DNA of 64,000 nt from Escherichia phage BEU50. The notes under the pieces are model-generated. The model made no database searches. It was not told where the DNA came from and saw only the letters and a program-made list of their open reading frames with translations. This document shows positions 5,049-64,000 of the stretch, piece after piece. The stretch is taken from sequence record OM632671.1. The stretch is one strand, 5' to 3'. The position numbers and the translations under genes were made by a program. Each line of letters opens with the position of its first letter. Within the stretch, counting starts at the first letter, position 1.

Positions 5049-5126
5049 AGTTTACATGTGCTTCAAACATGATATTATAGACCTATCAAAACAAAACAAC
5101 CAAATTGGAGAAATAAAATGTCTAAA
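5049..5126 (+). repeat. Promoter/leader cassette, copy 1 (early promoter, leader, first codons ATGTCTAAA)
   Basis: About 90% identical to 5371-5446; GTTTAC 5050-5055, TGATATTAT extended -10, shared RBS GGAGAAATAAAATG. Confidence 0.7.
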
Positions 5127-5333
5127 ATGAAATTAACCCAAAACACAACTACTCGTTTCGGTAAAGTTAAACCTGGTATGAATGCTCCCCGTAAAGCACT
5201 TGTTGAAGAATTAAATTTCTTAGAAGTTGAAATCAATTCTTTAGTGGTTCGCGGTTCAAATGGACATCGTTTAGAAAAGCTTCGTTCTAAAAAGGCAAAA
5301 CTTATTGGCCTTATTAAAGAAATGAGTTTGTAA
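5118..5333 (+). CDS. Hypothetical small basic protein
   Basis: 71-aa ORF flanked by the duplicated promoter/leader cassette. Confidence 0.5.
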   Translation: MSKMKLTQNTTTRFGKVKPGMNAPRKALVEELNFLEVEINSLVVRGSNGHRLEKLRSKKAKLIGLIKEMSL

Positions 5334-5370
5334 ATTTTACCAGGGCTTTTGGAAAAAGAGCCCAAAATAA

Positions 5371-9455: not shown

Positions 9456-12400
9456 TTATGCTAAACGAACGATATAGTTAAAAGCAACGTTTTTAACTGT
9501 GTTTTCTGTATTTCCTGTGGCATTTACAGTTATTGTATGTCCATGGGAACCAATTGCAACAGTATGCGTATGAGCACCAATACCTACCGAATGGGTATGA
9601 GCACCGATACCCACAGTATGAGCATGGTTACCCGTAGCGCTAGTAGTTCCTGACCAACTATGGGTGTGGGCACCGTCTGAAGAAGTTTTGGCCATATTCG
9701 ACGATGCAGTAGCACCGCTCACGGATCCAGTGATTTTAGCGTTGCCGTTTGGACCCGCACTATTGTATCCATCATAGAATATGCTAGTGGGTACGACGCC
9801 TTGTATCTGGGGGCCTGAACGCGCGTGTTGGTGAGCTCCTGCGGAACTAGTATTACCACTCACTGTATGGTTATGGTTGCCAGTGGTATTACTGGTCTTA
9901 GTACCATAATCAAAGCTTGAAGTCGTTTTGCTACCATAATCAAAACTAGAAGTGGTCTTAGTACCCAAATCTGTGTTTGATGCACTTGCGCTATGGCTAT
10001 GTGACTTAACACCGTCTGCTTCTGTACTTAATACAGCACGCCCGGATGGTTTACCCTTGATAGTTTGACCACGCATATCAGGCAGAGCACCGGAAGGATA
10101 CACCACAGCTAACTTAGGATACAAGCCAGCATCAAATGTTTGACCTTCCATTATGGCATAACCTTCAGGAGGTGTATCAGTAGGCCAAGGAATCGGAGCA
10201 CCAATTGGATAACTCGACACAATATCTGTCTTAAGGTTATTTATTGTGGTATTCAAGTTAGCAAAATTACCAGAACCACCGGTGATATTACCATCAGTAC
10301 CAAAAGTGGCAGCACCGGCAATAATTTTACCAGCAGCACGGAAATCACCAGTGCGACGGAATTCCCAACTTAAATCAGTGCCACCAGTACTGGTGCCTTG
10401 GTGGTAATGAACACGGAAATCTCCTTGATTAATTAATGTCCCGATAGAATAAGTGCTATCACCTTGCACATAACGTTGTTTAACAATAGGAATATATTCA
10501 GAAGTAGCAGTACGCTCTATATTCATATAGATTGGAGCTCTGGAGTTTGCGTCATTCTGAGATGCAAATGAACCACAACCTGCTGGGCGAACTCCATCAG
10601 AAGCCTCAATATCTATATAAGCATTTTGTCCTAATTGCATACGGTAATTAGGAGAAATGCGACTATTACTAGTAACAACAACAAGTTTGTTATCATTGTC
10701 CACTGTAATCATATTACCGCCAGCTCCATCATCGCCTAACGTGACAGAATGACGCATTTGTACCATACCATTATTAAGACTAATACTTAATGGACGGAGA
10801 TTGCTTATTCCACCTGATTCTCCAGCATCTTTAGGAGTCGGGATAATATGCAATGCCGCTTCAGAACGACGGAAAATAGCGCCGTATTCAGCATTCCAAA
10901 TTCTTAATGCATCAGCTGTTCCACCGAATTTAGCTTGTCCAGTAATAGAAGAACCACCTTGAACAAACAATCCATTATTCATTGTAACGTTGCCAACTAG
11001 AGTGCTTAATCCGTTAACTCTAAGACTTCCGTCGGTTATTAAGCTTCCTCTAGCATTAACCTGTCCATTGAACTGAGTTACAACAGGCCCAGTAGTTTCA
11101 GAGCCACTTGGAGCCACACGCTGTGAATAAAAATAATATCCTTGCCCATCTGATACTTCAAAAACCGTTTCACGATTACGATCGCCAGATGCGTTAAATG
11201 AATTACCCCATGCTTTAACAGTTACATAGCTTTTATTCTGACCAGCACGAGTACCGCCTTCCCACAAAATTTGCTTAGTGCCATCAATACCTGAAGCTGC
11301 TTTAAAAACTAGAGAAGCATTAGTTCCATCACCATTAAAATATAATCCATTATTAAGTTTTAATGTTTGAACAGAAGCGATGGTACCATCAGCACGCAAA
11401 TTTAACGAATTTGAACCGGTTTTAATATCTAAAATGCCAGGCTCAACAAGAAGCCCATCACCCATACTAATGGACATACGACCCGTGCCACGGAAATAGT
11501 GATACATTTTAGAATTACTGCTATAACCGATATGAGTTTGACCATCACCATTATTATTACCATCAACATCGGTACGCGCAGTAAACATTGCTTGGTTGTT
11601 ATTTGGGTAATCCCAAGTAGTACCAGAATCGCGGCTATAACCGACCATCAATTTCTTAGTGCTGTTAATACCTTTATTCAAAATGGTAGCGGATGAAATA
11701 CCGTTAGCCATGAAATCAATAACACCGTCGCGGACCCATTTAATACCGGTGTCGTTATCACCAATTGCAATACCTATAGAAATCGCAGAATCTAAAGGAT
11801 AACGTCCATTTGTACCATTATCAGGAAGACCTACCGAAATCGATTTACCTGCAGTAATACGACCGGAGGTATCAAACGCCCATTGGAAAGATTCCGGGCC
11901 TACACCTGTCCACCAAGAAATTTCTTGTGGCTTACCTTTTCGGCAATCGGCAATTTCATGGAAAATACTTGATGCACTTGATGCACGCAATTTACGCAAA
12001 TAGTTTAAACCGTTAGTAGTATTATCAGAACCATCAGCCGGTGGGTTATAAACCCAAGTAGGTAAAGAAACCCAATCATATCCAATGTTAGCATTAGCTA
12101 CAAATCTTTTTGTACTAAAATTAATATTTTTAGTAACAATTTCAGGACCGGTGATAATACCATTAGCAGAGTTTATATTGCCTGAAGCAGAAATATTACC
12201 GGTACGAACTTCAATACTACCGGAATCTACGATGAAATTACCATTTCGATTAAAAGTCCAATATTTTGAAGTCCCGGTTTCATCAATATAATGGAATTTA
12301 AAACTACCTTCGTTTACTAATGTACCGGCAGAAAAAGTACCGTCTTTATAACGTTGCTTAATCAGAGGATGATATTCTGATACTGAGGTAGTTGAACTCA

Positions 12401-12740
12401 AATCTGTAAAGATAGGGGCTTTATTTAGGTGTTGATTTGCCCAAGCACCATTACCAGCTATTTTAGGTAAAAATTCAATATATTTTCCTGCATAAACAAA
12501 CTGGTTTCCATTAAGATTATATGTACCGTTTTGTAAATAATCGCCATTTTGAGTTACATTACCGTTAATATCCCCACCCTTAGCAAAGCCTAGGCTAATA
12601 ATATTACCGAGGTCATCTTTAGTAAAAAGAGTTCGATCTTTTAAGTTTATCGCTAATTCACCTTCGGCTAATTGTGCTGCAGTAGGATTAACTCCTGCCA
12701 CTTTGCTTCTTTTAAATTGTATCTGTTTTAATGTAGCCAT
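9456..12740 (-). CDS. 37: Long tail fibre distal subunit gp37 (receptor-recognising tip)
   Basis: 1094 aa; C-terminal region with repeated GxHxH histidine boxes as in T4 gp37; synteny 34-35-36-37-38. Confidence 0.9.
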
Positions 12741-22338: not shown

Positions 22339-22581
22339 ATGAGATTGCAACGCCAGAGTATCAAAGATTCTGAAGTTAGAGGTAAATGGTACTTCAACAT
22401 CGTTGGTAAAGATGTTGAACTCCTTGAACAAGCCGAAGAAGCTTTACGTGAAATGGGTTGGAACGAAGAATGTGATGGATGTCCACTCTACGAAGATGGT
22501 ATATCATCCGGATTCTGGATTTATCACTCGGATGTCGACCAATTTAAAGCTGATTGGAAAATTGTGAAAAAGTCTGTTTGA
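22339..22581 (+). CDS. Hypothetical protein
   Basis: 80-aa ORF from ATG 22339 with GGAGAATAAAATG context. Confidence 0.45.
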   Translation: MRLQRQSIKDSEVRGKWYFNIVGKDVELLEQAEEALREMGWNEECDGCPLYEDGISSGFWIYHSDVDQFKADWKIVKKSV

Positions 22582-22590
22582 GAAAATACA

Positions 22591-22842
22591 ATGAAAACAC
22601 TAAATTTACTTAAGGTTGGGGAAGACATAGATATTGCTGATATCTACAAAAATCTAACTTATTATGATAATTTATTTGTCGTTCAAACCTTAAATGGCGA
22701 TTATTATACGGTTTCTTTAGTGCGAAATAAATTTAAAAACAAATTTTACTTTTGTATTTATAATTATCATGGCCAACGCTCTAGCAATTATATTGAACCG
22801 TCTGACATATTTTATATTGAGGAATTAAAATGCTTAAATTAG
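22591..22842 (+). CDS. Hypothetical protein
   Basis: 83-aa ORF preceding frd. Confidence 0.45.
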   Translation: MKTLNLLKVGEDIDIADIYKNLTYYDNLFVVQTLNGDYYTVSLVRNKFKNKFYFCIYNYHGQRSSNYIEPSDIFYIEELKCLN

Positions 22843-23417
22843 TATTCGCATGTGCCCCATCTAAAACAGTTGATGATAAACTGGAATATGCTTTTGGATT
22901 AGGTGATGGACTTCCATGGAAGCATATCAAACAAGATATGAGTAACTTTGTTGCTCGCACTAAAAACACTGTAATGGTTATGGGTGCTAAGACTTTTGCA
23001 TCATTACCTCGTCTACTCCCAGATCGTACTCATGTGGTTGTCACTGATATGGCCAGAAAACTGCCTAGGACTAAAACCAACGAACTTGCACGGTTCTATA
23101 TCACCCAATCTGAATTTATTACCTTGGTAACAGGTGGTGAAATTAACCTGTTTAGCCCTGCAACTGACGTACCGTTTAAACTTTCTACTGAACATGTTGA
23201 TGTATCTGTTATTGGCGGCCCAGCTCTGTTGAAACAAGCACTGCCTTATGCCGATGAAATCGTGATGACTAAAATCATTAAGAAATGTCGTGTTAATTCC
23301 GATGTTCAACTTGATAAAGATTTCGTCCAAGATATTATGCTTCAACGTTCTATGGTAGAATCTCATTACTACAGAATCGATGAACTCACCGAAATTACTG
23401 AGAGCGTGTATAAATGA
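22830..23417 (+). CDS. frd: Dihydrofolate reductase
   Basis: 195 aa, DHFR fold motifs; T4 frd 193 aa; synteny. Confidence 0.9.
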   Translation: MLKLVFACAPSKTVDDKLEYAFGLGDGLPWKHIKQDMSNFVARTKNTVMVMGAKTFASLPRLLPDRTHVVVTDMARKLPRTKTNELARFYITQSEFITLVTGGEINLFSPATDVPFKLSTEHVDVSVIGGPALLKQALPYADEIVMTKIIKKCRVNSDVQLDKDFVQDIMLQRSMVESHYYRIDELTEITESVYK

Positions 23418-23962
23418 AACATTATCAATACCTGATTAATGATATCCTAGAAAATGGCTACGAAACAGACGACCGTACAGGCACAGGAACAATTGCCCTG
23501 TTCGGAACTAAATTACGTTGGGACCTGACTAAAGGATTCCCTGCAGTAACAACTAAGAAATTAGCATGGAAAGCTTGTATTGCCGAACTACTGTGGTTCA
23601 TGTCTGGTTCTACCAATGTTAATGATTTGCGTATTCGTACTCATGGTAGTCTTATTCAAGGTAAAACTATTTGGGACGACAACTATGAAAATCAGGCAAA
23701 AGACCTTGGATATCATAGCGGCGAACTTGGTCCTATTTATGGTAAGCAATGGCGTGATTTTGGTGGTGTAGACCAATTGGTCAAAACTATCGACCGTATT
23801 AAAGCTCTTCCTAATGATCGTCGTCAAATAGTTTCTGCATGGAACCCAGCCGAAATTGACCAAATGGCTCTTCCTCCTTGCCATATGTTCTATCAGTTCA
23901 ATGTGCGTAATGGTCATCTTGATTTACAATGGTATCAACGCAGTGTAGATGTTTTCTTAGGT
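23414..23962 (+). CDS. td: Thymidylate synthase, exon 1
   Basis: 183 codons ending ...VDVFLG; intron follows, beginning TAATTTAGGCC as in T4 td. Confidence 0.85.
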
Positions 23963-24978
23963 TAATTTAGGCCTAGGTATAAGGTGACTTATACTTGTAA
24001 TCTATCTAAACGGGGGACCTCTCTAGTAGACAATCCCGTGCTAAATTGTAGGACTACCCTTTAATAAATACTTCTATATAAAAAGAGGTGTTTATGAAAA
24101 GCGGAATTTATCAGATTAAAAACACTTTAAACGGTAAAGTGTATGTTGGAAGTGCTAAAGATTTTGAGAAAAGATGGAAGAGACATTTTAAAGACCTTGA
24201 AAACGGTGTTCACTCTTCTATAAAATTTCAAAGGTCTTTTAATAAACATGGTAATGTTTTTGAATGCTCTGTACTGGAAGAAATTCCATATGAGAAAGAT
24301 TTGATTATTGAACGAGAAAATTTTTGGATTAAAGAGCTAAATTCTAAAATTAATGGATATAATATTGCTGATGCGTCTTTTGGCGATGTGCTTTCAAATC
24401 ATCCATTAAAAGAAGAAATTGCTAAGAAACGAGCTGAAACTGTTAAAGCTAAGATGCTTAAGCTTGGTCCTGATGGTCGGAAAGCTCTTTATGGTAAACA
24501 CGGAAGTAAAAATGGCCGATGGAATCCAGAAAACCACAAGTTTTGTAAATGCGGTGTTCGCATACCATCTTCGGCCGATACTTGTGGAAAGTGCCGAAAA
24601 CGTTCAGGTGAAAATAACCCGTTCTTTAATCACAAACATTCAGAAAAAACTAAAACTAAACTATCTGAAAAGATGAAAGGCAAAAAGCCAGCTAACATCA
24701 AAAAGATTTCATGCGATGGGATTATTTTTGAATGTGCAGCCGATGCGGCTAGACATTTTGAAATTTCATCAGGATTAGTTACTTACCGTGTAAAATCTGA
24801 TAAGTGGAATTGGTTCTACATAAATGCCTAACGACTATCCCTTTAGGGAGTAGGGTCAAGTGACTCGAAACGATAGACAACTTGCTTTAACAAGTTGGAG
24901 ATATAGTCTGCTCTGCATGGTGACATGCAGCTGGATATAATTCCGGGATAAGATTAACGACCTTATCTGAACATAATG
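23963..24978 (+). ncRNA. Group I self-splicing intron in td
   Basis: Sequence closely resembles the T4 td intron 5' and 3' ends (UAAUU.AGGCCU...UAUAAGGUGACUUAUACUUG ... ACAUAAUG); exon 1 plus exon 2 give a 286-aa protein, the T4 td length. Confidence 0.85.
24094..24831 (+). CDS. I-TevI: I-TevI-like GIY-YIG homing endonuclease (intron-encoded)
   Basis: 245 aa from ATG 24094; GIYQIKN...KVYVGS GIY-YIG motif, zinc finger CKCG...CGKC, C-terminal HTH; near-identical in architecture to T4 I-TevI. Confidence 0.85.
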   Translation: MKSGIYQIKNTLNGKVYVGSAKDFEKRWKRHFKDLENGVHSSIKFQRSFNKHGNVFECSVLEEIPYEKDLIIERENFWIKELNSKINGYNIADASFGDVLSNHPLKEEIAKKRAETVKAKMLKLGPDGRKALYGKHGSKNGRWNPENHKFCKCGVRIPSSADTCGKCRKRSGENNPFFNHKHSEKTKTKLSEKMKGKKPANIKKISCDGIIFECAADAARHFEISSGLVTYRVKSDKWNWFYINA

Positions 24979-25597: not shown

Positions 25598-25620
25598 GAT
25601 ACTACAAAGTGGATTATACT

Positions 25621-26256
25621 ATGGATTATTTAAAAATATATAAAAACTTGGTAAATAAAGAAAGAAATTTTGAAGATATAGATGGTGAATGGCATCATAT
25701 AATCCCAAAATGTTTAGGTGGCACCAATGAGTCATACAATCTAGTTAAATTAACATATTCAGAACATTATTTGGCTCATCTTCTTTTATTAAAAATATAT
25801 CCGAACAATTTAGGTTTAGCAACCGCGGTTAATTTAATGAGTTCTAGAAATAATAAAGAATTTGGATGGACTAGAGCAAAAATGGTTGATTTGCTTAAAG
25901 GGCGAAAATTAGACCAAAAAACAAAAGATAAAATATCTCGTTCCAAACTAGGACATGTTAAATCTGAAGAGACTAAAGAAAAGATACGAAATTCTTTATT
26001 AGGTAAAAAACGTGGACAATACAATATAAAAATTAAATCAAAAATTTCTAAAGGAGTCCCATTAAAAGAATCAACTAAGCAAGCTATTTCTAATGCTATG
26101 ATAGGAGCTAAGAATCCATTTGCAAAGAAAGTAATTATAAACGACGTAATATATGATACATTAAATGAAGCGTCAATAATTTTATCTATGAGCACCCAAA
26201 CGGTTAGACGCCGTCTAAAATCATCAAATTATCCAACATGGAATTATTATGTATAA
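25621..26256 (+). CDS. Free-standing HNH homing endonuclease
   Basis: HNH motif EWHHIIPKCLGGTNESYNLVKLTYSEHYLAH; two NUMOD3-like repeats (KDKISRSKLGHVKSEETKEKIRNSLLGKK); C-terminal HTH-like tail. Confidence 0.7.
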   Translation: MDYLKIYKNLVNKERNFEDIDGEWHHIIPKCLGGTNESYNLVKLTYSEHYLAHLLLLKIYPNNLGLATAVNLMSSRNNKEFGWTRAKMVDLLKGRKLDQKTKDKISRSKLGHVKSEETKEKIRNSLLGKKRGQYNIKIKSKISKGVPLKESTKQAISNAMIGAKNPFAKKVIINDVIYDTLNEASIILSMSTQTVRRRLKSSNYPTWNYYV

Positions 26257-28567: not shown

Positions 28568-29218
28568 ATGAGTACAGTTTTTAACACACAACAAGTCGAT
28601 GTTTTGAATGAACCGATGTTCTTTGGTTCTGGTCTTGGCCTCGCACGGTATGATATTCAGCGTCATAAAGTTTTTGAAGAGCTTATCGAAAAGCAGCTCT
28701 CGTTCTTTTGGCGTCCCGAGGAAGTAAACTTGATGTTGGATTCGGCCCAGTTTAATAAGCTTCCACAGTTCCAACAGGACATCTTTACCAACAACCTTAA
28801 GTATCAATCATTATTAGATTCTATCCAAGGTAGAGCACCATCTGCGGTACTTATGTCATTGCTTTCAGACCCTTCATTAGATACATGGGTTGCTACATGG
28901 ACTTTCAGTGAAACTATTCACTCTCGTTCATATACTCATATTATGCGAAATCTTTATACAGATCCATCGAAGGTGTTTGATGAGATTGTATTAGATGAAG
29001 CTATTATGAAGCGTGCCGAATCTATCGGACGATATTATGATGATGTTCTGGTTAAAGCTCGTTATTGGGAAAACGCTAAAGAATTTGTAGAATTAGCTAA
29101 AGAATCTCCTGATGCCGACTTTCGTTTAAACCAAGCTATTAAACAAGAAGCCGAAGCTAAACGTGCTTTAATGAAATCTCTTTACCTCTGTTTGCACGTT
29201 ATTAATGCCTTAGAAGCT
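28568..29218 (+). pseudogene. nrdB: nrdB 5' fragment (ribonucleotide reductase small subunit, truncated after codon 217)
   Basis: MSTVFNTQQVD... through LYLCLHVINALEA matches class Ia R2 up to the conserved NALEA; expected continuation (IRFY...) absent; frame then runs through antisense gene 23 sequence. Confidence 0.75.
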
Positions 29219-29518
29219 AACCATACCCATAACTGCTGGCCCAATCTGGGTTACTGCACCAGAGGTTTGACCTGCTGCGATGTTCTGAGCATTATAACCG
29301 TGGTCACCACCAATTTCAGCTTCGGTCAAGAAAGAACCAAATGCCTGAGCGATTTTCTCGTCTTTATATTCAGGGGATACTTCGAAATCTTTTTCCTGGT
29401 TTTCGAAGATTTTAGCGATAATAGCCTGCTTGCTATTAGCGATTTCCGGCAGGCCTTCACCTTCCAGCAGTTCTTTCCATTTGTCTACGAGCTGAGCTTT
29501 AGTTTTGATAGTAGTCAT
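29219..29518 (-). pseudogene. 23: Major capsid protein gp23 N-terminal fragment (first 100 codons only)
   Basis: MTTIKTKAQLVDKWKELLEGEGLPEIANSKQAIIAKIFENQEKDF...GPAVMGMV matches T4 gp23 residues 1-100, then SF-stop where T4 continues RRAIPNL; no remainder of gene 23 in the window. Confidence 0.8.
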
Positions 29519-29535: not shown

Positions 29536-30348
29536 TTAGAAACGAGATGCGACTTTCGCATATAAACTTACATTAGAATTCTGTTCTACCTGAGTTGTGG
29601 TAGTGTCAACTGCTTCGGCAACAAAATTAAGACCGGCAGCGTCATTGTCAACTGTATTTATACTTTCGGTAATAGCGGCTTCTTCTTTAGTAGAACCTTT
29701 AACCATTTCTACAATAGCAGTTAACTTAGTACCAAATGCGTCAGAATAATCCATACCTTCAACCAGGCCAATAACTTTTTCTTTCTGAGATTCAGTCAGG
29801 TCTTTTACGCTTTCATTAATAGCGGTTTCACGCTGAACGTAATTGATATATGCATCACGTTTGGTAACTTCTTCGAACAATCGAGCGGTTTCTTCTTTAT
29901 GTTCGGCCAGCTCTTCTTCCATTTCTGCTACAACATCTACAGATTCTTCTGGAACAACAACGTTATGTTCAACAAACAGTTCTTTCAGACCACCAAGCAT
30001 GGATTCGAACAAATCAGCTTTAATGCCTTTATCAACTGCGATTTGGTTTTCTGCGAGCCATTCTTTTGCAAGATGGTCTAGGAATTTAGAAGCTTGTTCA
30101 GCCAATTTTTTATCAGCTTTCTCTTCAGCATCTTCTTTAGCCTTTTCAACTTCTTCTTCGGCCTTTTCGGCGATGGCTTTGATATGAGATTCAGCCAGTT
30201 TGACTGCTTCCTGCTTAACGGTGGCTTCGAATACAGTGCTGAAATTAGCTTTAACGTCCGGAGACAGTTCTACTGATTCGAAAACACTATTAAGAGCAAC
30301 TGAAGTCTCGATGTTCTGAGCTTCTTTCAAAAGTTGTTCTTTGATCAT
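29536..30348 (-). CDS. 22: Prohead scaffold protein gp22
   Basis: 270 aa, acidic coiled-coil-rich; synteny upstream of 23. Confidence 0.85.
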   Translation of the reverse strand: MIKEQLLKEAQNIETSVALNSVFESVELSPDVKANFSTVFEATVKQEAVKLAESHIKAIAEKAEEEVEKAKEDAEEKADKKLAEQASKFLDHLAKEWLAENQIAVDKGIKADLFESMLGGLKELFVEHNVVVPEESVDVVAEMEEELAEHKEETARLFEEVTKRDAYINYVQRETAINESVKDLTESQKEKVIGLVEGMDYSDAFGTKLTAIVEMVKGSTKEEAAITESINTVDNDAAGLNFVAEAVDTTTTQVEQNSNVSLYAKVASRF

Positions 30349-30381
30349 TTTAGTGTCCTGTGGTTTAGATTACATTATTAT

Positions 30382-31023
30382 TTATAATGCTTTTAAACTC
30401 TCTGCGAGAGCTTTAAATGCTTCGTCAGCACTGTTTTTGGTGATTTCCACCGAATTTTCTGATTCTGATATTTGTTTAGGAGTAACCCAAGCATCTGGAG
30501 CAGAAGGTCCCCATACGGCATCTACGCCGACGGTTAATTTAAATCCTTCGTTCACGATACGGTACCCTTTATTGGTGTCGGTTAAAGAACCAAGACCACG
30601 AGAGGAAACACCTGGAATCCAACCAGCTCGTATATTAGCAGCTAATTTATCGCCGGGACCATGGTCGCCTTCAATAATTCTAGCACGTCCATATACATCG
30701 TTTCCTTTCCACCACATATCTTCAATAATGATAGCGGCTTGCATAGGGTCAACATTTGCACGAGGTGGATGGTTTAATTCTCCAAGGGCTTGTTTGGTTG
30801 CGACTTGTTCTTTAATATAGTCACTTACTGCTTTTTCCAAAACGCGTTTAGGATATAAACGTTTATTTCGGTTAACAACCTCTGCCTGAAGAAAAATACC
30901 TTCTATATAAAGCCCTGGTTTTAAGCCAGAATCTTTTCCATCATGAGATTCCAACATTGGAACGCCATCAATAATCTCACCGGGTTGACCCCAAGTTTCA
31001 ATAAGTAACTCGGGTTTATTCAT
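30382..31023 (-). CDS. 21: Prohead protease gp21
   Basis: 213 aa (T4 212 aa); synteny 20-67-68-21-22-23. Confidence 0.9.
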   Translation of the reverse strand: MNKPELLIETWGQPGEIIDGVPMLESHDGKDSGLKPGLYIEGIFLQAEVVNRNKRLYPKRVLEKAVSDYIKEQVATKQALGELNHPPRANVDPMQAAIIIEDMWWKGNDVYGRARIIEGDHGPGDKLAANIRAGWIPGVSSRGLGSLTDTNKGYRIVNEGFKLTVGVDAVWGPSAPDAWVTPKQISESENSVEITKNSADEAFKALAESLKAL

Positions 31024-31448
31024 TAGCTTAATCCTAATGCTTTACGACGTTTAAGAGCTTTTTTACGCTTACGCAAGCCTTTAACTTGGCCTGAAGGGTT
31101 AGCTTTTTTAGCTTTAACGACCTTACGAGCGATTTGTCTACGTTTTGCTTTAGAAAGACCAGTGGTTTGGAACGCGTTACGTTCACGAGTTTTACGGTCT
31201 TTAGTGCGGGTAACTTCACCACGAGAAGAAACATGTTTAACGATAAACTCATTTAACTGTTCTTCATTAATAATGGAAGCCATTGCAACAGCTAAATCCG
31301 TTTCAGTTTCAAGCATGTTCTCGATAATAGTATTTATATCGTCAATATCGAGAGCAGAAGACAATGCATCGATTCGGCCCTGTGCTTCAGGAATAAGTGC
31401 TTCGACATTTTCGAGTACCAATTCATAAGATTCAGGGATAAGATACAT
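31023..31448 (-). CDS. 68: Prohead core protein gp68
   Basis: 141 aa, same size as T4 gp68. Confidence 0.8.
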
Positions 31449-31684
31449 TATTCATCGTCCTCATCATCTTCGTCTTCGTCGTCATCGCCTTCATCAGCGT
31501 CGTCTTCCGAAGCTTTAGCTTTCTTTTCTTCTTCAGGTTCTTCGCCTTCAATCAAAAATTGAGAAGCGATTTCTGCTTTGCGTGCTTCAATCAAACGAAC
31601 CGTTTTTTCTGCCATTGCACTTTCAAAAAACTTTCGAGTAGCAACGAGGTCGTTTGATTTAATAGCTTGAATTAAATCGTCCAT
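31448..31684 (-). CDS. 67: Prohead core protein gp67
   Basis: 78 aa with poly-acidic C-terminus ([11 protein letters not shown]). Confidence 0.75.
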
Positions 31685-33255
31685 TAAAAATCCTCTTGTT
31701 CTTGGTCGGGGTCTTGGAAACGAGCCTCTTTCGACTCTTCTTCAATTTGCTTAGCCTCTTGTTCAATTTCCTCATCAGACATCTGAAGAATATCTTTCAT
31801 AGCTGTTCTGTGAGAAATATATTTACCAATAAATGGTTCGGCCATCTGAAGCATATTAATTCGACGCTCCAGAATCTCAGCATCCTTTAATTCCGAGAAA
31901 TAACTATCCCGATGAAATTTTATCTTAATATTATTTATTTCATCATTCCACTCATCTTCTGTAATAATTCCTTTAAGAATTAAATTAGTTTTAAGCGGGT
32001 CTAGGAATATCTCTTCAAATTTATGTTGCAGCTCACGAATAAATTTACCAAATGACAATTCATCTCGTGTAATAGAAGTACCAGCATCAAACTGTATACC
32101 ACCTTGGTCACTTGGAATACGGGTAATAGGAATACGTAAAGCCATATAAAGTGCATTACGGAACCAACGTACATCTTCCATATTTCCAGTATTATCTGCA
32201 CCTGGTAATGTGTCAACTTCTGTTACTGCTTTACCATCACGTCGTTGTAACCAATAATCTTCGGTCATCGACATAATATGCTGCTGGTTTTTAATCTTGC
32301 CTGTAGTAGCATCATATGCAATACGGTTTTTCATCGTATTCATAACATGTTGCATATGTTCTGCTGCTTTTCTTGAAGGCATATTACCTGTATCAACGTA
32401 CCATACACGACGATCGGGAGCACGAGTAATACGATAAATTACGACGGCATCTTCAAGAAGTTTTAATTGGTTCGCTGGCTTAATAGCCCGATGCAAATAA
32501 CCGATGATATTTTTACCACAACAATCAACTAAACCAGAATGGGCATAAACAATCGCGGCTTTAGGGATTTTTATTTTTGTGCCAGCTTCATATATGCGAC
32601 CATCACAAGCATAAGATTCGTGTGATGTGTCATAAATGAAATATTCTTTATAACCCTTGACTATTTTAACACCGGCTTCAGTGGTTGTAATAACTTCACG
32701 GACATATTGAACTTGACGTGGGTCTAAACGACGAAGCTCTTTAATACCTTCTTTAGGGCGTTTAGGGTCAATAATTTTATGGAAGAAAATTCGAGAATCC
32801 ACATACCAACGTCTAAAATGATCTGAACCTTTACGTTGGAAAGATAAATGATTTAACACTTCGTTAAATTCATCCAACATCATTGATTTGATATTTGGAC
32901 TAAATTTTGTGTTGTCTAAATTTATAGAAACGACTTCTGTATCATCTTCATATACGATAGCATCGGAAACTATTTCAGAGACCGCATTGTCTACTTCATA
33001 GTTCGTCATCAAATTTCGATAAGTATCGATTAATTCACGGGTTGATTTGAGCCCTGGTTCTTGACTACCGAACATTCTCTGAAACATAGCATTATATGTT
33101 TGCTGTGCTTCATTTTCAGATACTTCGTATTCTTTAGCGCCGTCGTCTAATTTTGGCGCGGTGATAGATTCTAAATTTTCTTTTTCTTGGTCTTTGTAAT
33201 CACGTTCGTCCATTTTTGCCCATGGAGCAAACAAACTTAAGATATTAAATTTCAT
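31684..33255 (-). CDS. 20: Portal vertex protein gp20
   Basis: 523 aa (T4 524 aa); synteny. Confidence 0.9.
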
Positions 33256-60418: not shown

Positions 60419-60447
60419 CAAAACAAATGAGTAAATGGAGAAATAAA

Positions 60448-60633
60448 ATGAAACGCGCTGAACTGATTCGTAATGTTGCTGTAGTAATTGCTTCAATGGC
60501 TTTTAGTTTTTCGATGTTTGTAGGATTCATTTGTGGACTACTGACAACAACAGAAAATTCTATCTCATTGGTAGTAGCATTTCTAATCGGCTTAATCGCT
60601 ATCGTTATGGATAAAATTGCAAAAGGTGAGTAA
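60448..60633 (+). CDS. Small membrane protein (hypothetical)
   Basis: 61 aa from ATG after GGAGAAATAAA RBS; one or two predicted TM helices. Confidence 0.4.
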   Translation: MKRAELIRNVAVVIASMAFSFSMFVGFICGLLTTTENSISLVVAFLIGLIAIVMDKIAKGE

Positions 60634-60634
60634 A

Positions 60635-60997
60635 ATGAAATATCACGTATATGCGGATTTTGAAGCAAATCCTTCTAAAGACCCTGATTGTCGTTTGATA
60701 CGCAGACCATTTGATTCAGCAGCTCAAGCATGGGCTTGGATTAAAACTTGTACTCCTTCTTACACTTTCTTTGAAGTGGTAGACGATAACGGTGTTCTGC
60801 ATCCAGAACCTACAGAAACTATTAATTTCCTTCTGTTTGCTGGTTACGACTGTTATCCTCTTGGCGGTATTGATGATCTTGTTGCTACAGGAAAAACTGT
60901 TGAAGCTCTTCGCGAAATTTATAAAAACGCGGAAGAAAATTTTGACTGGTATCATATTGTTGATGCTCATACCTTTGAAATGGTGGAACATTCATGA
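60635..60997 (+). CDS. Hypothetical protein
   Basis: 120-aa ORF from ATG 60635 (GGTGAGTAAAATG). Confidence 0.45.
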   Translation: MKYHVYADFEANPSKDPDCRLIRRPFDSAAQAWAWIKTCTPSYTFFEVVDDNGVLHPEPTETINFLLFAGYDCYPLGGIDDLVATGKTVEALREIYKNAEENFDWYHIVDAHTFEMVEHS

Positions 60998-61284
60998 TTC
61001 TTTATGCTAAAGTATCGTCCATTGAGAACGGATATGAAAGCGACCAACGAGCAGCTAAAGCGTTAGTTGATGACTATGGTATTTTGACTAATTTTGAAGT
61101 TGAAAAGGTTTACATCGACCGTTCGTCTTCACAGGTTAAATTACTCTGTGAAGACGATAAATTTAACACAGTTAACTTTGATTTCTTTATTGAAACAGAA
61201 AAAGGCCCTCTTGAATATGATATTTTCAAGAATCCTTTGAAATTACGTTGCATTGAATATAATTACATTAATATGGTACGGTGA
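60994..61284 (+). CDS. Hypothetical protein
   Basis: 96-aa ORF, ATGA coupling with upstream ORF. Confidence 0.45.
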   Translation: MILYAKVSSIENGYESDQRAAKALVDDYGILTNFEVEKVYIDRSSSQVKLLCEDDKFNTVNFDFFIETEKGPLEYDIFKNPLKLRCIEYNYINMVR

Positions 61285-61288
61285 GTAA

Positions 61289-61804
61289 ATGAATATTTGT
61301 TTAGGCAGTACAATTCCTAAGGGTTACGTAATTGATGTCACTACTTGGGAAAATGACGGCGACAACTATAAAACCAAAACATTATTTGGTGTGGAAGAGC
61401 ATGAGCTCCAACAGTTTAAATATCTCTTGAAGAAATTTAAGAGTCGTCATTCCAGCACTAAAGCTGAACGTTACTGTGGTAATACACCATTCAGTGATTG
61501 CTCGCTTTTAATCTATGAATACTTGGTTGAAGGGCTGTTCTCAGACCAGCTTTATCCAGAATTCATTAAAAAGGTCTTTGATATTGAAGTCGACCTTGGT
61601 AATAAATCTGAAGAAGACGAATCGCGTGTATTCGACCTGTTCCATGAGAATGGATATTTGGTATCAGAAGGTCTCATTGATATTCTTGGTCATGCTTCTG
61701 AATATTATGATTATGATTTCTTGCGTGTAGTTGAATGTGTTGAATTTGCTTATATTGAAGAAGAAATCGTTTTGCCAACTGTTAAAATGATTGATTTGCT
61801 TTAA
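61289..61804 (+). CDS. Hypothetical protein
   Basis: 171-aa acidic ORF. Confidence 0.5.
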   Translation: MNICLGSTIPKGYVIDVTTWENDGDNYKTKTLFGVEEHELQQFKYLLKKFKSRHSSTKAERYCGNTPFSDCSLLIYEYLVEGLFSDQLYPEFIKKVFDIEVDLGNKSEEDESRVFDLFHENGYLVSEGLIDILGHASEYYDYDFLRVVECVEFAYIEEEIVLPTVKMIDLL

Positions 61805-61883
61805 GAATTATGTGTTATTATTAATTCGTACCCTCTATTACCAAAGGTGCTCTAAAGTGCCTTTCATAATAGAAAGTTATTTA

Positions 61884-61957
61884 GGCCCTGTAGCTCAATG
61901 GTTAGCAGCAGTCCCCTCATAAGGGAAAGGTTACCAGTTCGAATCTGGTCTGGGTCA
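61884..61957 (+). tRNA. tRNA with CAU anticodon (Ile2-type lysidine tRNA or Met)
   Basis: Manual fold: acceptor GGCCCTG/CTGGGTC (one mismatch), D-arm GCTC, anticodon loop CTCATAA, T-arm ACCAG-TTCGAAT-CTGGT; 5' end resembles bacterial tRNA-Ile2; CCA not encoded. Confidence 0.6.
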
Positions 61958-61963
61958 TATATT

Positions 61964-62040
61964 CGAGGCATAGCTCAATTGTATGGAGCAACGGACTTCT
62001 AATCCGTAGGTTGAAGGTTAGAATCCTTCTGTCTCGACCA
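61964..62040 (+). tRNA. tRNA-Arg (anticodon UCU)
   Basis: Manual fold: acceptor CGAGGCA/TGTCTCG, D-stem GCTC/GAGC, anticodon stem ACGGA/TCCGT with loop CTTCTAA, T-arm GAAGG-TTAGAAT-CCTTC, encoded CCA. Confidence 0.75.
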
Positions 62041-62058
62041 ACTTTAAGTGAGGAAAAT

Positions 62059-62403
62059 ATGAAAGGCAATATTTATCTGGTAGTTCATGATTTAACGTTT
62101 TATTTTAACGAATATGATACAGTTATTTCTCATCGATTGATTAATTCGCTGTATCAGCATGCCGATTACATTTATGTTCAAAATGAATTTGGACATTGGA
62201 AGTTCATTAAAAATCGTTACGGGTTAACTAGTTTTGAATACTTTGACCGTAAAGACCTTTTAAACGAAATCCCATTGCAACATCGATTCCAGAAACGCGA
62301 ATCATTATATTATTGCCGTCATATACCAAACGCCGAATGTGTTAATGAAGCGATTAATCTATGGCGTCGGCGTCGAGAGCAAATTGATGATATGCCAAAA
62401 TAA
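62059..62403 (+). CDS. Hypothetical protein
   Basis: 114-aa ORF from ATG 62059 (GAGGAAAATATG) just after tRNA-Arg. Confidence 0.5.
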   Translation: MKGNIYLVVHDLTFYFNEYDTVISHRLINSLYQHADYIYVQNEFGHWKFIKNRYGLTSFEYFDRKDLLNEIPLQHRFQKRESLYYCRHIPNAECVNEAINLWRRRREQIDDMPK

Positions 62404-62700
62404 GAAGCCGGGTCGCTACCGGTAAGTCGTCGGACTGATGTTCCCTGAGTAAGGACTGGTCTTAATAAATCTTTACGATTTGTTAATATCCCCTTACATC
62501 ACAGCAGAAACGGCGCACAGAATTATCGATTCGAGGAAATATCTTTGCCGTAAGCCGAGTAGCGTTTTTGACGGAACGTTCGGATATGGTCGAGATATGG
62601 CCTTTTAAAAATATTGAGTAGCGTCAACTGCTTAATAACCGGGTTCGAATCCCGGCGTTTCGTACAAACACTTGCCTTAGCAGGTGGAAACCCCGACAAG
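62404..62700 (+). ncRNA. Putative small stable RNA region with tRNA-like 3' module (compare T4 species 1/2 RNAs, rnaC/rnaD)
   Basis: Non-coding stretch containing a perfect T-arm CCGGG-TTCGAAT-CCCGG (62639-62655) and an acceptor-like pairing CGGAACG/CGTTTCG, but no canonical D or anticodon arm. Confidence 0.3.
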
Positions 62701-62715
62701 GTTGCCGCAAGGCTT

Positions 62716-62744
62716 AGCCCCTTCCGAAAGGTTGGGGCTTTTTG
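62716..62744 (+). terminator. Intrinsic terminator (AGCCCC-UU-CC-GAAA-GG-UU-GGGGCU plus T-run)
   Basis: Hairpin with GNRA loop followed by TTTTT; near-identical copy at 63259-63287. Confidence 0.55.
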
Positions 62745-62788
62745 GCATAATAATAAATAGATAAGTTAATTAACTTAGGAAAAGCAAC

Positions 62789-63253
62789 ATGAAATCATAC
62801 GCTGAATTTTTGACTGAACAATCTAGTTCAGATGTAAAAGCCGCTGCGATTGCAGCAATTCAAGCAGGTAAATATTCTTACAAAGACGCCTCTGATGAAG
62901 AACGTTTCCGTTTTATTAGAGATTTTAAAGCCGAAGGTTTTACTAATGCTAATACTGTTAGCCGAGTTTTTAAAAGCCTAGCTGCATCAGGTGAATTGTT
63001 CCAGAAAGCTACAGGTAAAGCACCTGCGCCAAAAGCGGACCCTAAAGCAGCTCAAGAAAAAAATATCGCCAAAGGAATTATTTCTAAGTATGAAGCAATT
63101 CTTAAAGAGCTTTTAGTAATCAAAACAGAAGGACAGAAACTGGCACGAGCACATAGCTTCAAAGATAATCCTCACGCTCATAGCCTTGAGTATGTTGAAG
63201 ATATCCAAAAACTTATTAAAGACCGTATCTGGTCTGCTAAACAAATTAAATAA
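62789..63253 (+). CDS. Putative capsid-targeted internal protein (CTS-bearing)
   Basis: 154 aa beginning MKSYAEFLTEQ, matching the T4 internal-protein capsid targeting sequence and gp21 cleavage motif L-x-E; lysine/alanine-rich. Confidence 0.5.
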   Translation: MKSYAEFLTEQSSSDVKAAAIAAIQAGKYSYKDASDEERFRFIRDFKAEGFTNANTVSRVFKSLAASGELFQKATGKAPAPKADPKAAQEKNIAKGIISKYEAILKELLVIKTEGQKLARAHSFKDNPHAHSLEYVEDIQKLIKDRIWSAKQIK

Positions 63254-63258
63254 TAGAA

Positions 63259-63287
63259 TGCCCCTTCCTTATGGTTGGGGCTTTTTG
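63259..63287 (+). terminator. Intrinsic terminator (second copy of the GCCCCTTCC...GGTTGGGGC hairpin plus T-run)
   Basis: GCCCCTTCCTTATGGTTGGGGCTTTTT; direct repeat of 62716-62744. Confidence 0.55.
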
Positions 63288-63319
63288 GCATCTAGGGCAT
63301 AAAAATATTTCATAAAGAT

Positions 63320-63349
63320 GTTTACTTCTTCTAAGGACATGATACTATA
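63320..63349 (+). promoter_or_regulatory. Early promoter cassette (GTTTAC, TGATACTAT)
   Basis: GTTTAC 63320-63325, -10 63344-63349; leader GACTTATCAACCACAGAGGAG repeated at 63721-63745. Confidence 0.55.
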
Positions 63350-63376
63350 GACTTATCAACCACAGAGGAGAATATT

Positions 63377-63682
63377 ATGAGTCTTTACACTGAACTGAAT
63401 AAAAAATCTGAAGAATCTGCTGAAACTATTTTTAAAAACGTGCAAAAGCGTATTTTAGAAAAGATGTATAACACTGCAGCTAAAGGTGAAAAATCTTGCC
63501 GGTTCCCGATGAGGTGTTCTTCCGATTTATGCGCAAATACTATTGAATGGCTGGAAAGTGAAGGTCTTACGGTAGAGAAAAACCCGGCGATTTCTATTGA
63601 CAGTGAATCATATATTAGTATTTCTTGGGATAAACCACGTATGAATGAAGGACACTACAAGTTGTTAAGTTGGAAAAATTAA
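63377..63682 (+). CDS. Hypothetical protein
   Basis: 101-aa ORF downstream of promoter cassette. Confidence 0.5.
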   Translation: MSLYTELNKKSEESAETIFKNVQKRILEKMYNTAAKGEKSCRFPMRCSSDLCANTIEWLESEGLTVEKNPAISIDSESYISISWDKPRMNEGHYKLLSWKN

Positions 63683-63690
63683 AAATAATG

Positions 63691-63720
63691 ATGTACAAGC
63701 ACCAAGGATGGTGATACTAT
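63691..63720 (+). promoter_or_regulatory. Early promoter cassette (ATGTAC, TGATACTAT)
   Basis: -10 TACTAT 63715-63720 with upstream TG; leader shared with 63350-63375. Confidence 0.5.
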
Positions 63721-63750
63721 AGACTTATCAACTACAGAGGAGTAAACAAA

Positions 63751-63915
63751 ATGACTACTTTAATTATTTGGTTCGATGAAAATGAAGAAACATACTGTGT
63801 GAATATTGGTGAAAGTCCAATGCCTGAATTTGAATCCTCAGATAAAAACTCTGTTGTATCTTGGGCTGAAGGTTATAAAGCAGCTAAAGGTGACGTTGAA
63901 ATAATTTACATCTAA
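63751..63915 (+). CDS. Hypothetical small protein
   Basis: 54-aa ORF (MTTLIIWFDENEETY...) below the ORF-track size cut-off, with GAGGAGTAAACAAAATG start context. Confidence 0.35.
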   Translation: MTTLIIWFDENEETYCVNIGESPMPEFESSDKNSVVSWAEGYKAAKGDVEIIYI

Positions 63916-63927
63916 GTAAGTTTATGT

Positions 63928-63948
63928 TATAGTAGTCCTATCAAATCA
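63928..63948 (+). promoter_or_regulatory. Early promoter -10 plus shared leader (TGtTATAGTAGTCCTATCAAA)
   Basis: Same TATAGTAGTCCTATCA module as at 1993-2008, 2505-2520 and 60405-60420. Confidence 0.45.
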
Positions 63949-63961
63949 AGAGGAAAACAAA

Positions 63962-64000
63962 ATGGCTAAAGTTAGTATTGATGTCGTTGATTATGAATAC
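63962..64000 (+). CDS. Hypothetical protein, 5' end only (window edge)
   Basis: ATG 63962 with GAGGAAAACAAAATG context; ORF runs off the window. Confidence 0.3.
   Translation, partial: MAKVSIDVVDYEY

Follow-up and report, generated by a model that had tools for sequence, protein, structure and literature searches.

A joint between nrdB and gene 23 in an RB69-type phage sequence, probably an in-silico join of distant ends

The window analysed here, a stretch of 64 kb taken as a whole, comes from an RB69-type phage (Mosigvirus, RB69 group) and contains a joint at which two cut-off genes, nrdB and the major capsid protein gene 23, meet at a single base. The joint is a real feature of this sequence, since chance cannot yield two long matches of 97.5-99.3% identity that abut at one base. 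It does not belong to a genome that propagates as a phage, and we infer that it was probably produced in silico, when distant ends were joined.

Anatomy and occurrence of the joint

The nrdB reading ends at 29218 in ...KSLYLCLHVINALEA (in the ORF listing it is also given as ...LYLCLHVINALEA up to 29218) and represents the 5' part of exon 1 of an intron-type allele; where the gene is uninterrupted, it continues past the break as ...GCTATTCGTTTTTATG. From 29219 on, the sequence is the reverse complement of gene 23, running from codon 100 to codon 1. The encoded gp23 residues 1-100 (29518..29219) show 100/100 identity to Escherichia phage NRG-P0074 by tblastn, and the uninterrupted gene 23 continues past the break as ...GGTATGGTTCGTCGTGC. 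When the window was compared with the reference base by base, the left homology ended at 29219 and the right homology began at 29219, without filler, and the two sides shared a single A only. A sequence-only reading of this DNA had already described nrdB codon 217 as fused to gene 23 codon 100 at one base-precise breakpoint without a spacer, with the reversed gene 23 running on into Ser-Phe and a stop. ORFs and tblastn agree with these codon numbers, the base-by-base comparison bears out the breakpoint up to one ambiguous A, and the minus-strand ORF at 29518..29210 reads as described. The features at the joint are collected in Table 1.

Table 1. Features at and around the joint, in window coordinates.
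Feature	Coordinates	Strand	Evidence and remarks
nrdB codons 1-217, cut-off gene	28568..29218	+	ATG at 28568, 651 nt; Pfam Ribonuc_red_sm
Gene 23 (major capsid protein) codons 1-100, cut-off gene	29219..29518	-	ORFs, base-by-base comparison, tblastn, alignment of 11 relatives
Joint	29218..29220	.	Break at 29218/29219 or 29219/29220; the A at 29219 fits both sides
Chimeric read-through ORF, 319 aa	28568..29527	+	NrdB 1-217 plus a 102-aa tail from antisense gene 23
Chimeric ORF, 102 aa	29210..29518	-	gp23 1-100 (MTTIKTKAQL...GPAVMGMV) plus Ser-Phe and stop from antisense nrdB
nrdA, intact, 754 aa	26249..28513	+	ORF; colinear with NRG-P0074
Head genes 22, 21, 68, 67, 20, intact	29536..33255	-	ORFs; directly adjoin truncated gene 23

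NRG-P0074 (PQ480333.1) is the closest record for both 25-kb flanks, at 98.3% and 99.3% identity. Local blastn, with flank identities of 97.5-99.3%, aligned window 1-29219 to NRG-P0074 2057-30801 and window 29219-60429 to NRG-P0074 67175-98386, each on the plus strand, and the order of the head genes (22, 21, 68, 67, 20) is the same in NRG-P0074 and 10 relatives. The flanks had thus been correctly read from the sequence as colinear in the T4 manner, with the geometry of a simple deletion: both lie on the same strand of NRG-P0074 and one interval is skipped. This interval corresponds to NRG-P0074 30802-67174. The loss of a block of essential genes had been put at roughly 30+ kb; it amounts to 36,373 bp, and the genes listed at the time are annotated there.

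The absent 36.4 kb opens on one side with the end of nrdB exon 1 (ATTCGTTTTT...) and on the other with gene 23 codon 101. According to the NRG-P0074 annotation, its nrdB side comprises the end of exon 1, a group I intron with an HNH endonuclease (I-TevIII) and nrdB exon 2. These are followed by denA, rnlA, alc, the spanins, pseT, cd, 31, rIII, 30 and alt, and then by 54, 48, 29, 28, 27, 51, 26, 25, uvsY and uvsW. The gene 23 side comprises a homing endonuclease, inh, hoc, rnlB, 24, a second homing endonuclease and gene 23 codons 101-522. No gp24, NrdB exon 2 or gp23 past residue 100 was detected by tblastn within the 64-kb window, and the missing interval has only regulatory-type repeats of 34-88 nt in common with it.

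A genome without the skipped genes cannot build capsids or baseplates. The sequence-only reading had argued that no capsids form without most of gene 23; this holds, and the genes needed for baseplates are missing as well. To our knowledge, no T4-type virion forms without 23, 24, the hub genes 25-29, 48, 51, 54, 31 and the ligase gene 30. Because virion-essential genes are missing and none is found elsewhere in the window, the consensus genome of a lysate cannot look like this. All other genes in the window are intact and the flanks are 97.5-99.3% identical to one closest relative, so that the decay expected of a long-lived defective element is not seen.

The last 3.6 kb of the window (60430-64000) have no counterpart in the corresponding part of NRG-P0074 and are contiguous in phage a20 (98.6%), which leaves the joint as the sole non-colinear event in the window. 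This normal hyperplastic region carries several small ORFs and tRNA genes at 61884-61957 and 61964-62037 (tRNA-Arg and tRNA-Met in the annotation of relatives). Short stretches without alignment to NRG-P0074 are also found at 5126-5363, 10304-10781 and 22576-22820; one of them lies inside the distal long-tail-fibre gene gp37 (9456-12740), and the exact gp37 protein is on no record.

We further investigated whether the joint occurs elsewhere. A 1-kb query over the joint matched 744 phage records, each at two separate places split at 29218/29219 (query position 520 being window 29219). Both halves fell in one place in 0/744 matching records, and no spanning match was found in the 50,697 phage records of INPHARED, nor in E. 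coli genomes or plasmids. A 40-mer over the joint was absent from IMG/VR, JGI metagenomes and GTDB genomes, as was a window-specific 41-mer located 50-90 nt to its left. Among 153 billion indexed gene positions, neither of the exact chimeric proteins (319 aa and 102 aa) occurs, and look-ups of the exact gp37 and gp7 proteins likewise gave no hit. In the collections searched, the joint is thus a singleton. A reference with the same arrangement, which the earlier reading had named as one case that would speak against it if a complete gene 23 lay elsewhere, was not among the records searched: none spans the joint. Recurrence is what an established helper-dependent genome would be tested for, and the same joint was seen in 0 independent samples or records. 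Nothing indicates a propagating biological entity at the joint.

The break sites in nrdB and gene 23

A group I intron encoding a 269-aa HNH endonuclease interrupts nrdB in NRG-P0074, JK45 and RB3, and the intron ORF of NRG-P0074 is 98.9% identical to the biochemically characterised I-TevIII of RB3. Rfam at the gathering threshold missed the ORF-bearing nrdB intron in the reference, and the splice sites were therefore taken from a comparison of alleles. When the intron-carrying alleles are set against the intron-less allele of Logan contig L005, the intron is seen to insert after ...TCTTTTGCGT, so that the break lies 24-26 nt upstream of its insertion site.

In phage RB3, I-TevIII homes to the nrdB group I intron insertion site (PMC1865063, PMC2790892) and cuts at -14/-16 relative to it (PMC1865063). 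The break, at -24 to -26, is about 9-11 bp from this cut and thus lies near the I-TevIII site rather than at it. Of the suggestion, made from the sequence alone, that the nrdB break might coincide with an intron insertion or cleavage site, the neighbourhood of the insertion site stood and the match to the I-TevIII cut did not. A break in nrdB this close to this one site is expected by chance at ~3e-4, or ~0.6% when ~10 endonuclease genes and two breaks are allowed for. The closeness is probably not random; it suggests a non-random cause, which could be biological. The likeness to I-TevIII homing in RB3 extends to the break falling within the extended homing-site region and to the near-identical enzyme of the relatives. 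Homing differs, however, in the position of the cut and in ending in gene conversion, not in a deletion, whereas here the retained exon is of the intron-carrying, uncleavable type and nothing comparable is found at the gene 23 end.

The allele to which the retained exon belongs can be read from the 85 nt before the break: they differ greatly from the intron-less L005 allele and match the intron-carrying alleles of RB3 (Tequatrovirus) and NRG-P0074 at every position. An intron-carrying parent is therefore most likely and, as the intron disrupts its own homing site, it would have been immune to cleavage. As to whether a cleaved allele is represented, the retained 85 nt match intron-carrying alleles, and the region downstream is missing from the window. 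By its distribution among alleles, the 85-nt stretch appears to be a co-converted flank travelling with the intron. Used as a query, this left flank matched 369 records, 83 of them at at least 99%; together with its flanks, the intron makes up a block that is almost the same in many T-even phages. Contigs end in such shared blocks when a sample holds more than one T-even phage, which may be a more mundane reason for the break lying so near the intron site.

The truncated nrdB exon 1 (28568-29218) is itself a mosaic. It is 92.7% identical to NRG-P0074 overall and 99.3% identical to JK45 exon 1. Over the last ~146 nt it is near-identical to NRG-P0074, and over the last 85 nt it is identical to RB3, a phage of another genus. 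Such a pattern resembles a co-conversion tract that moved together with the I-TevIII intron.

At the other break, gene 23 is nearly invariant around codon 100 in the alignment of 11 relatives, and no intron, endonuclease gene or indel was found near this codon in any of them. A cryptic I-TevIII site was considered and rejected: gene 23 and the homing site have GCTATTC-(12 nt)-CTTTTG in common, but the resemblance is at chance level, with 16/30 matches between the two and 680 genome positions scoring as well or better in a 30-mer scan. The second break was thus found at neither a known endonuclease target nor a cryptic homing site. In NRG-P0074, a Seg-like GIY-YIG endonuclease gene lies between 23 and 24 (65189-65848; L001 37190-37849), antisense like T4 segD; its match to Pfam SegE_GIY-YIG is weak, and the gene is absent in 10 other Mosigvirus loci.

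Several other mechanisms were examined at the two break sites and discarded. The lack of shared sequence at the joint rules out a de Bruijn misjoin through a shared k-mer, as the break sites have no stretch of at least 20 nt in common. A deletion between short direct repeats was rejected on the single shared A, there being no repeat of several nt. The two sites were also compared for a common restriction site, and none was found. The idea that both ends are unitig ends located k-1 nt past the last strain-specific SNP was dropped as well. On the left, the SNP at 29143 fits k=77 against the RB3 allele, and we treat this fit as coincidence; on the right, no standard k is matched by the SNPs, which lie at 19, 28 and 82 nt. 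The clustering of SNPs near the breaks is compatible with recombination boundaries, judged on few sites only.

Origin of the joint

The sequence-only reading had left the cause open between a defective or deletion genome, a recombinant construct and a chimeric join between two contigs. If the joint was made in silico, an incomplete RB69-like contig of ~132 kb with ends in nrdB and in gene 23 would have had its two ends abutted. This may have happened through the assumption of a circular genome followed by rotation, through concatenation of contigs or through a window wrapping round the record; another possible route is an assembly that contains a chimeric read or path. On this account, the real phage would possess the missing 36.4 kb, which would reside in another contig or have been lost from the record. 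Such an origin is favoured by the non-viable product, the otherwise pristine genes, the lack of a recombination signature, the singleton status of the joint and the high base rate of error, joining errors being common in phage assemblies. The 1-nt overlap likewise supports abutted arbitrary ends, since T4 deletions in vivo, such as the classical rII deletions, usually arise between short direct repeats. Spontaneous deletions of the rII type share with the present case the loss of one colinear interval and a clean novel joint. They differ from it in that no direct repeat is found here (1 nt), the interval is far larger, many essential genes are gone and the product cannot form plaques.

The location of the left end also speaks for an in-silico join. 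This end falls in the part of the exon that accompanies the I-TevIII intron and does not differ between genera over 85 nt, and shared blocks of this sort are where the assembly of mixed T-even samples breaks up. Other observations weigh on the opposite side. One assembly route, the de Bruijn misjoin, is excluded. The deletion-like order and orientation would result from ~1/4 of random contig joins, the distances to the nearest strain-specific SNPs fit no one standard k on both sides, and the closeness of the nrdB break to the homing site suggests a cause that is not random. The same balance appears in a comparison with the end-joining and rotation artefacts of circularly permuted (headful) genomes. 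These resemble the joint in their base-precise abutment without homology, their colinear flanks, the apparent absence of essential genes and their unique occurrence, whereas a purely random join predicts neither the orientation of a deletion nor an end close to an intron site.

A real molecule with a spontaneous 36.4-kb deletion, formed by illegitimate end joining and maintained as a ~132-kb defective, helper-dependent genome packaged by the headful, is a doubtful alternative, even though the flanks are arranged just as a simple deletion would leave them and the joint is clean, with an overlap of 1 nt. It would replicate and be packaged only where intact phage infects the same cell, and would have to be plentiful enough to enter an assembly. 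Such a genome would keep the genes for terminase, portal, gp32 and gp59, which are present in the window, and T4-type packaging needs no specific site. Defective-interfering T-even genomes have no precedent in the literature searched, however, the joint is in no collection searched, and no direct repeat is found at it. In a variant of this explanation, the left break would possibly stem from a double-strand break at or near the I-TevIII site, followed by ~10 nt of resection. The 98.9% identity between the intron ORF of relatives and RB3 I-TevIII fits this variant, but the break is not at the I-TevIII cut site and the retained exon 1 is the intron-associated allele, so that the parent most likely carried the intron and had its own homing site disrupted. 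At the gene 23 end, the near-invariance around codon 100 and the chance-level resemblance to the homing site offer it nothing further. We give little credence to a real and abundant defective genome that started from a break next to the I-TevIII site and was sealed without homology; if true, it would be the counterpart, among T-even phages, of defective interfering genomes, and would make a homing-endonuclease site a hotspot of gross deletion. Defective interfering or helper-dependent genomes of other viruses are similarly shortened, similarly lack structural genes and need a helper to spread. They differ in that nothing of the kind is documented for T-even phages in the literature searched, that the joint does not recur and that no replication or packaging advantage is evident.

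It is also quite improbable that the sequence was deliberately made, either as an engineered or cloned phage fragment or as an edited or spliced test sequence. A junction this clean, base-precise and free of filler or homology is what deliberate construction would give, and the lack of a traceable source genome in the collections searched fits this reading as well. The cut points, however, lie amid codon runs, with no shared restriction site or design logic, and no engineer would leave behind two half genes. A random edit, for its part, would fall within 26 nt of the nrdB intron site at ~3e-4. Shortened T4 records are present in the database, and engineered T4 deletion strains remove non-essential regions.

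If the joint is an artefact, as an in-silico join would be, the record behind the window should be taken for neither a complete nor a viable genome, and its chimeric ORFs, of 319 aa and 102 aa, should stay out of protein databases. If spanning reads exist, the sequence would instead document something rare in a T-even phage, a large deletion genome that depends on a helper. A real joint would not be a new kind of system; with one end by a homing-endonuclease site, it would bear on mobile introns as a source of instability in phage genomes.

The nrd and td neighbourhood

Logan contig L005 (ERR10789554, 10,494 bp) encodes a NrdA protein identical to that of the window. It carries an intron-less td and an intron-less nrdB, strongly diverged at the nucleotide level, and illustrates module exchange around the nrd genes. 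L005 was considered as a parent of the window and ruled out by its differing, intron-less nrdB.

In the window, td is split. Its 5' part is a 183-aa ORF at 23414-23965, and an I-TevI-type intron endonuclease ORF follows at 24088-24831, with GIY-YIG, I-TevI zinc-finger, NUMOD3 and I-TevI DNA-binding domains in Pfam; the td layout is the same in NRG-P0074. A free-standing endonuclease-like ORF of 215 aa (25609-26256) begins with GTG and overlaps the start of nrdA. It matches the I-TevI DNA-binding and NUMOD3 domains below the curated Pfam cut-offs, and no catalytic domain was found in it. This ORF lies upstream of nrdA, unlike T4 mobE, which is located between nrdA and nrdB.
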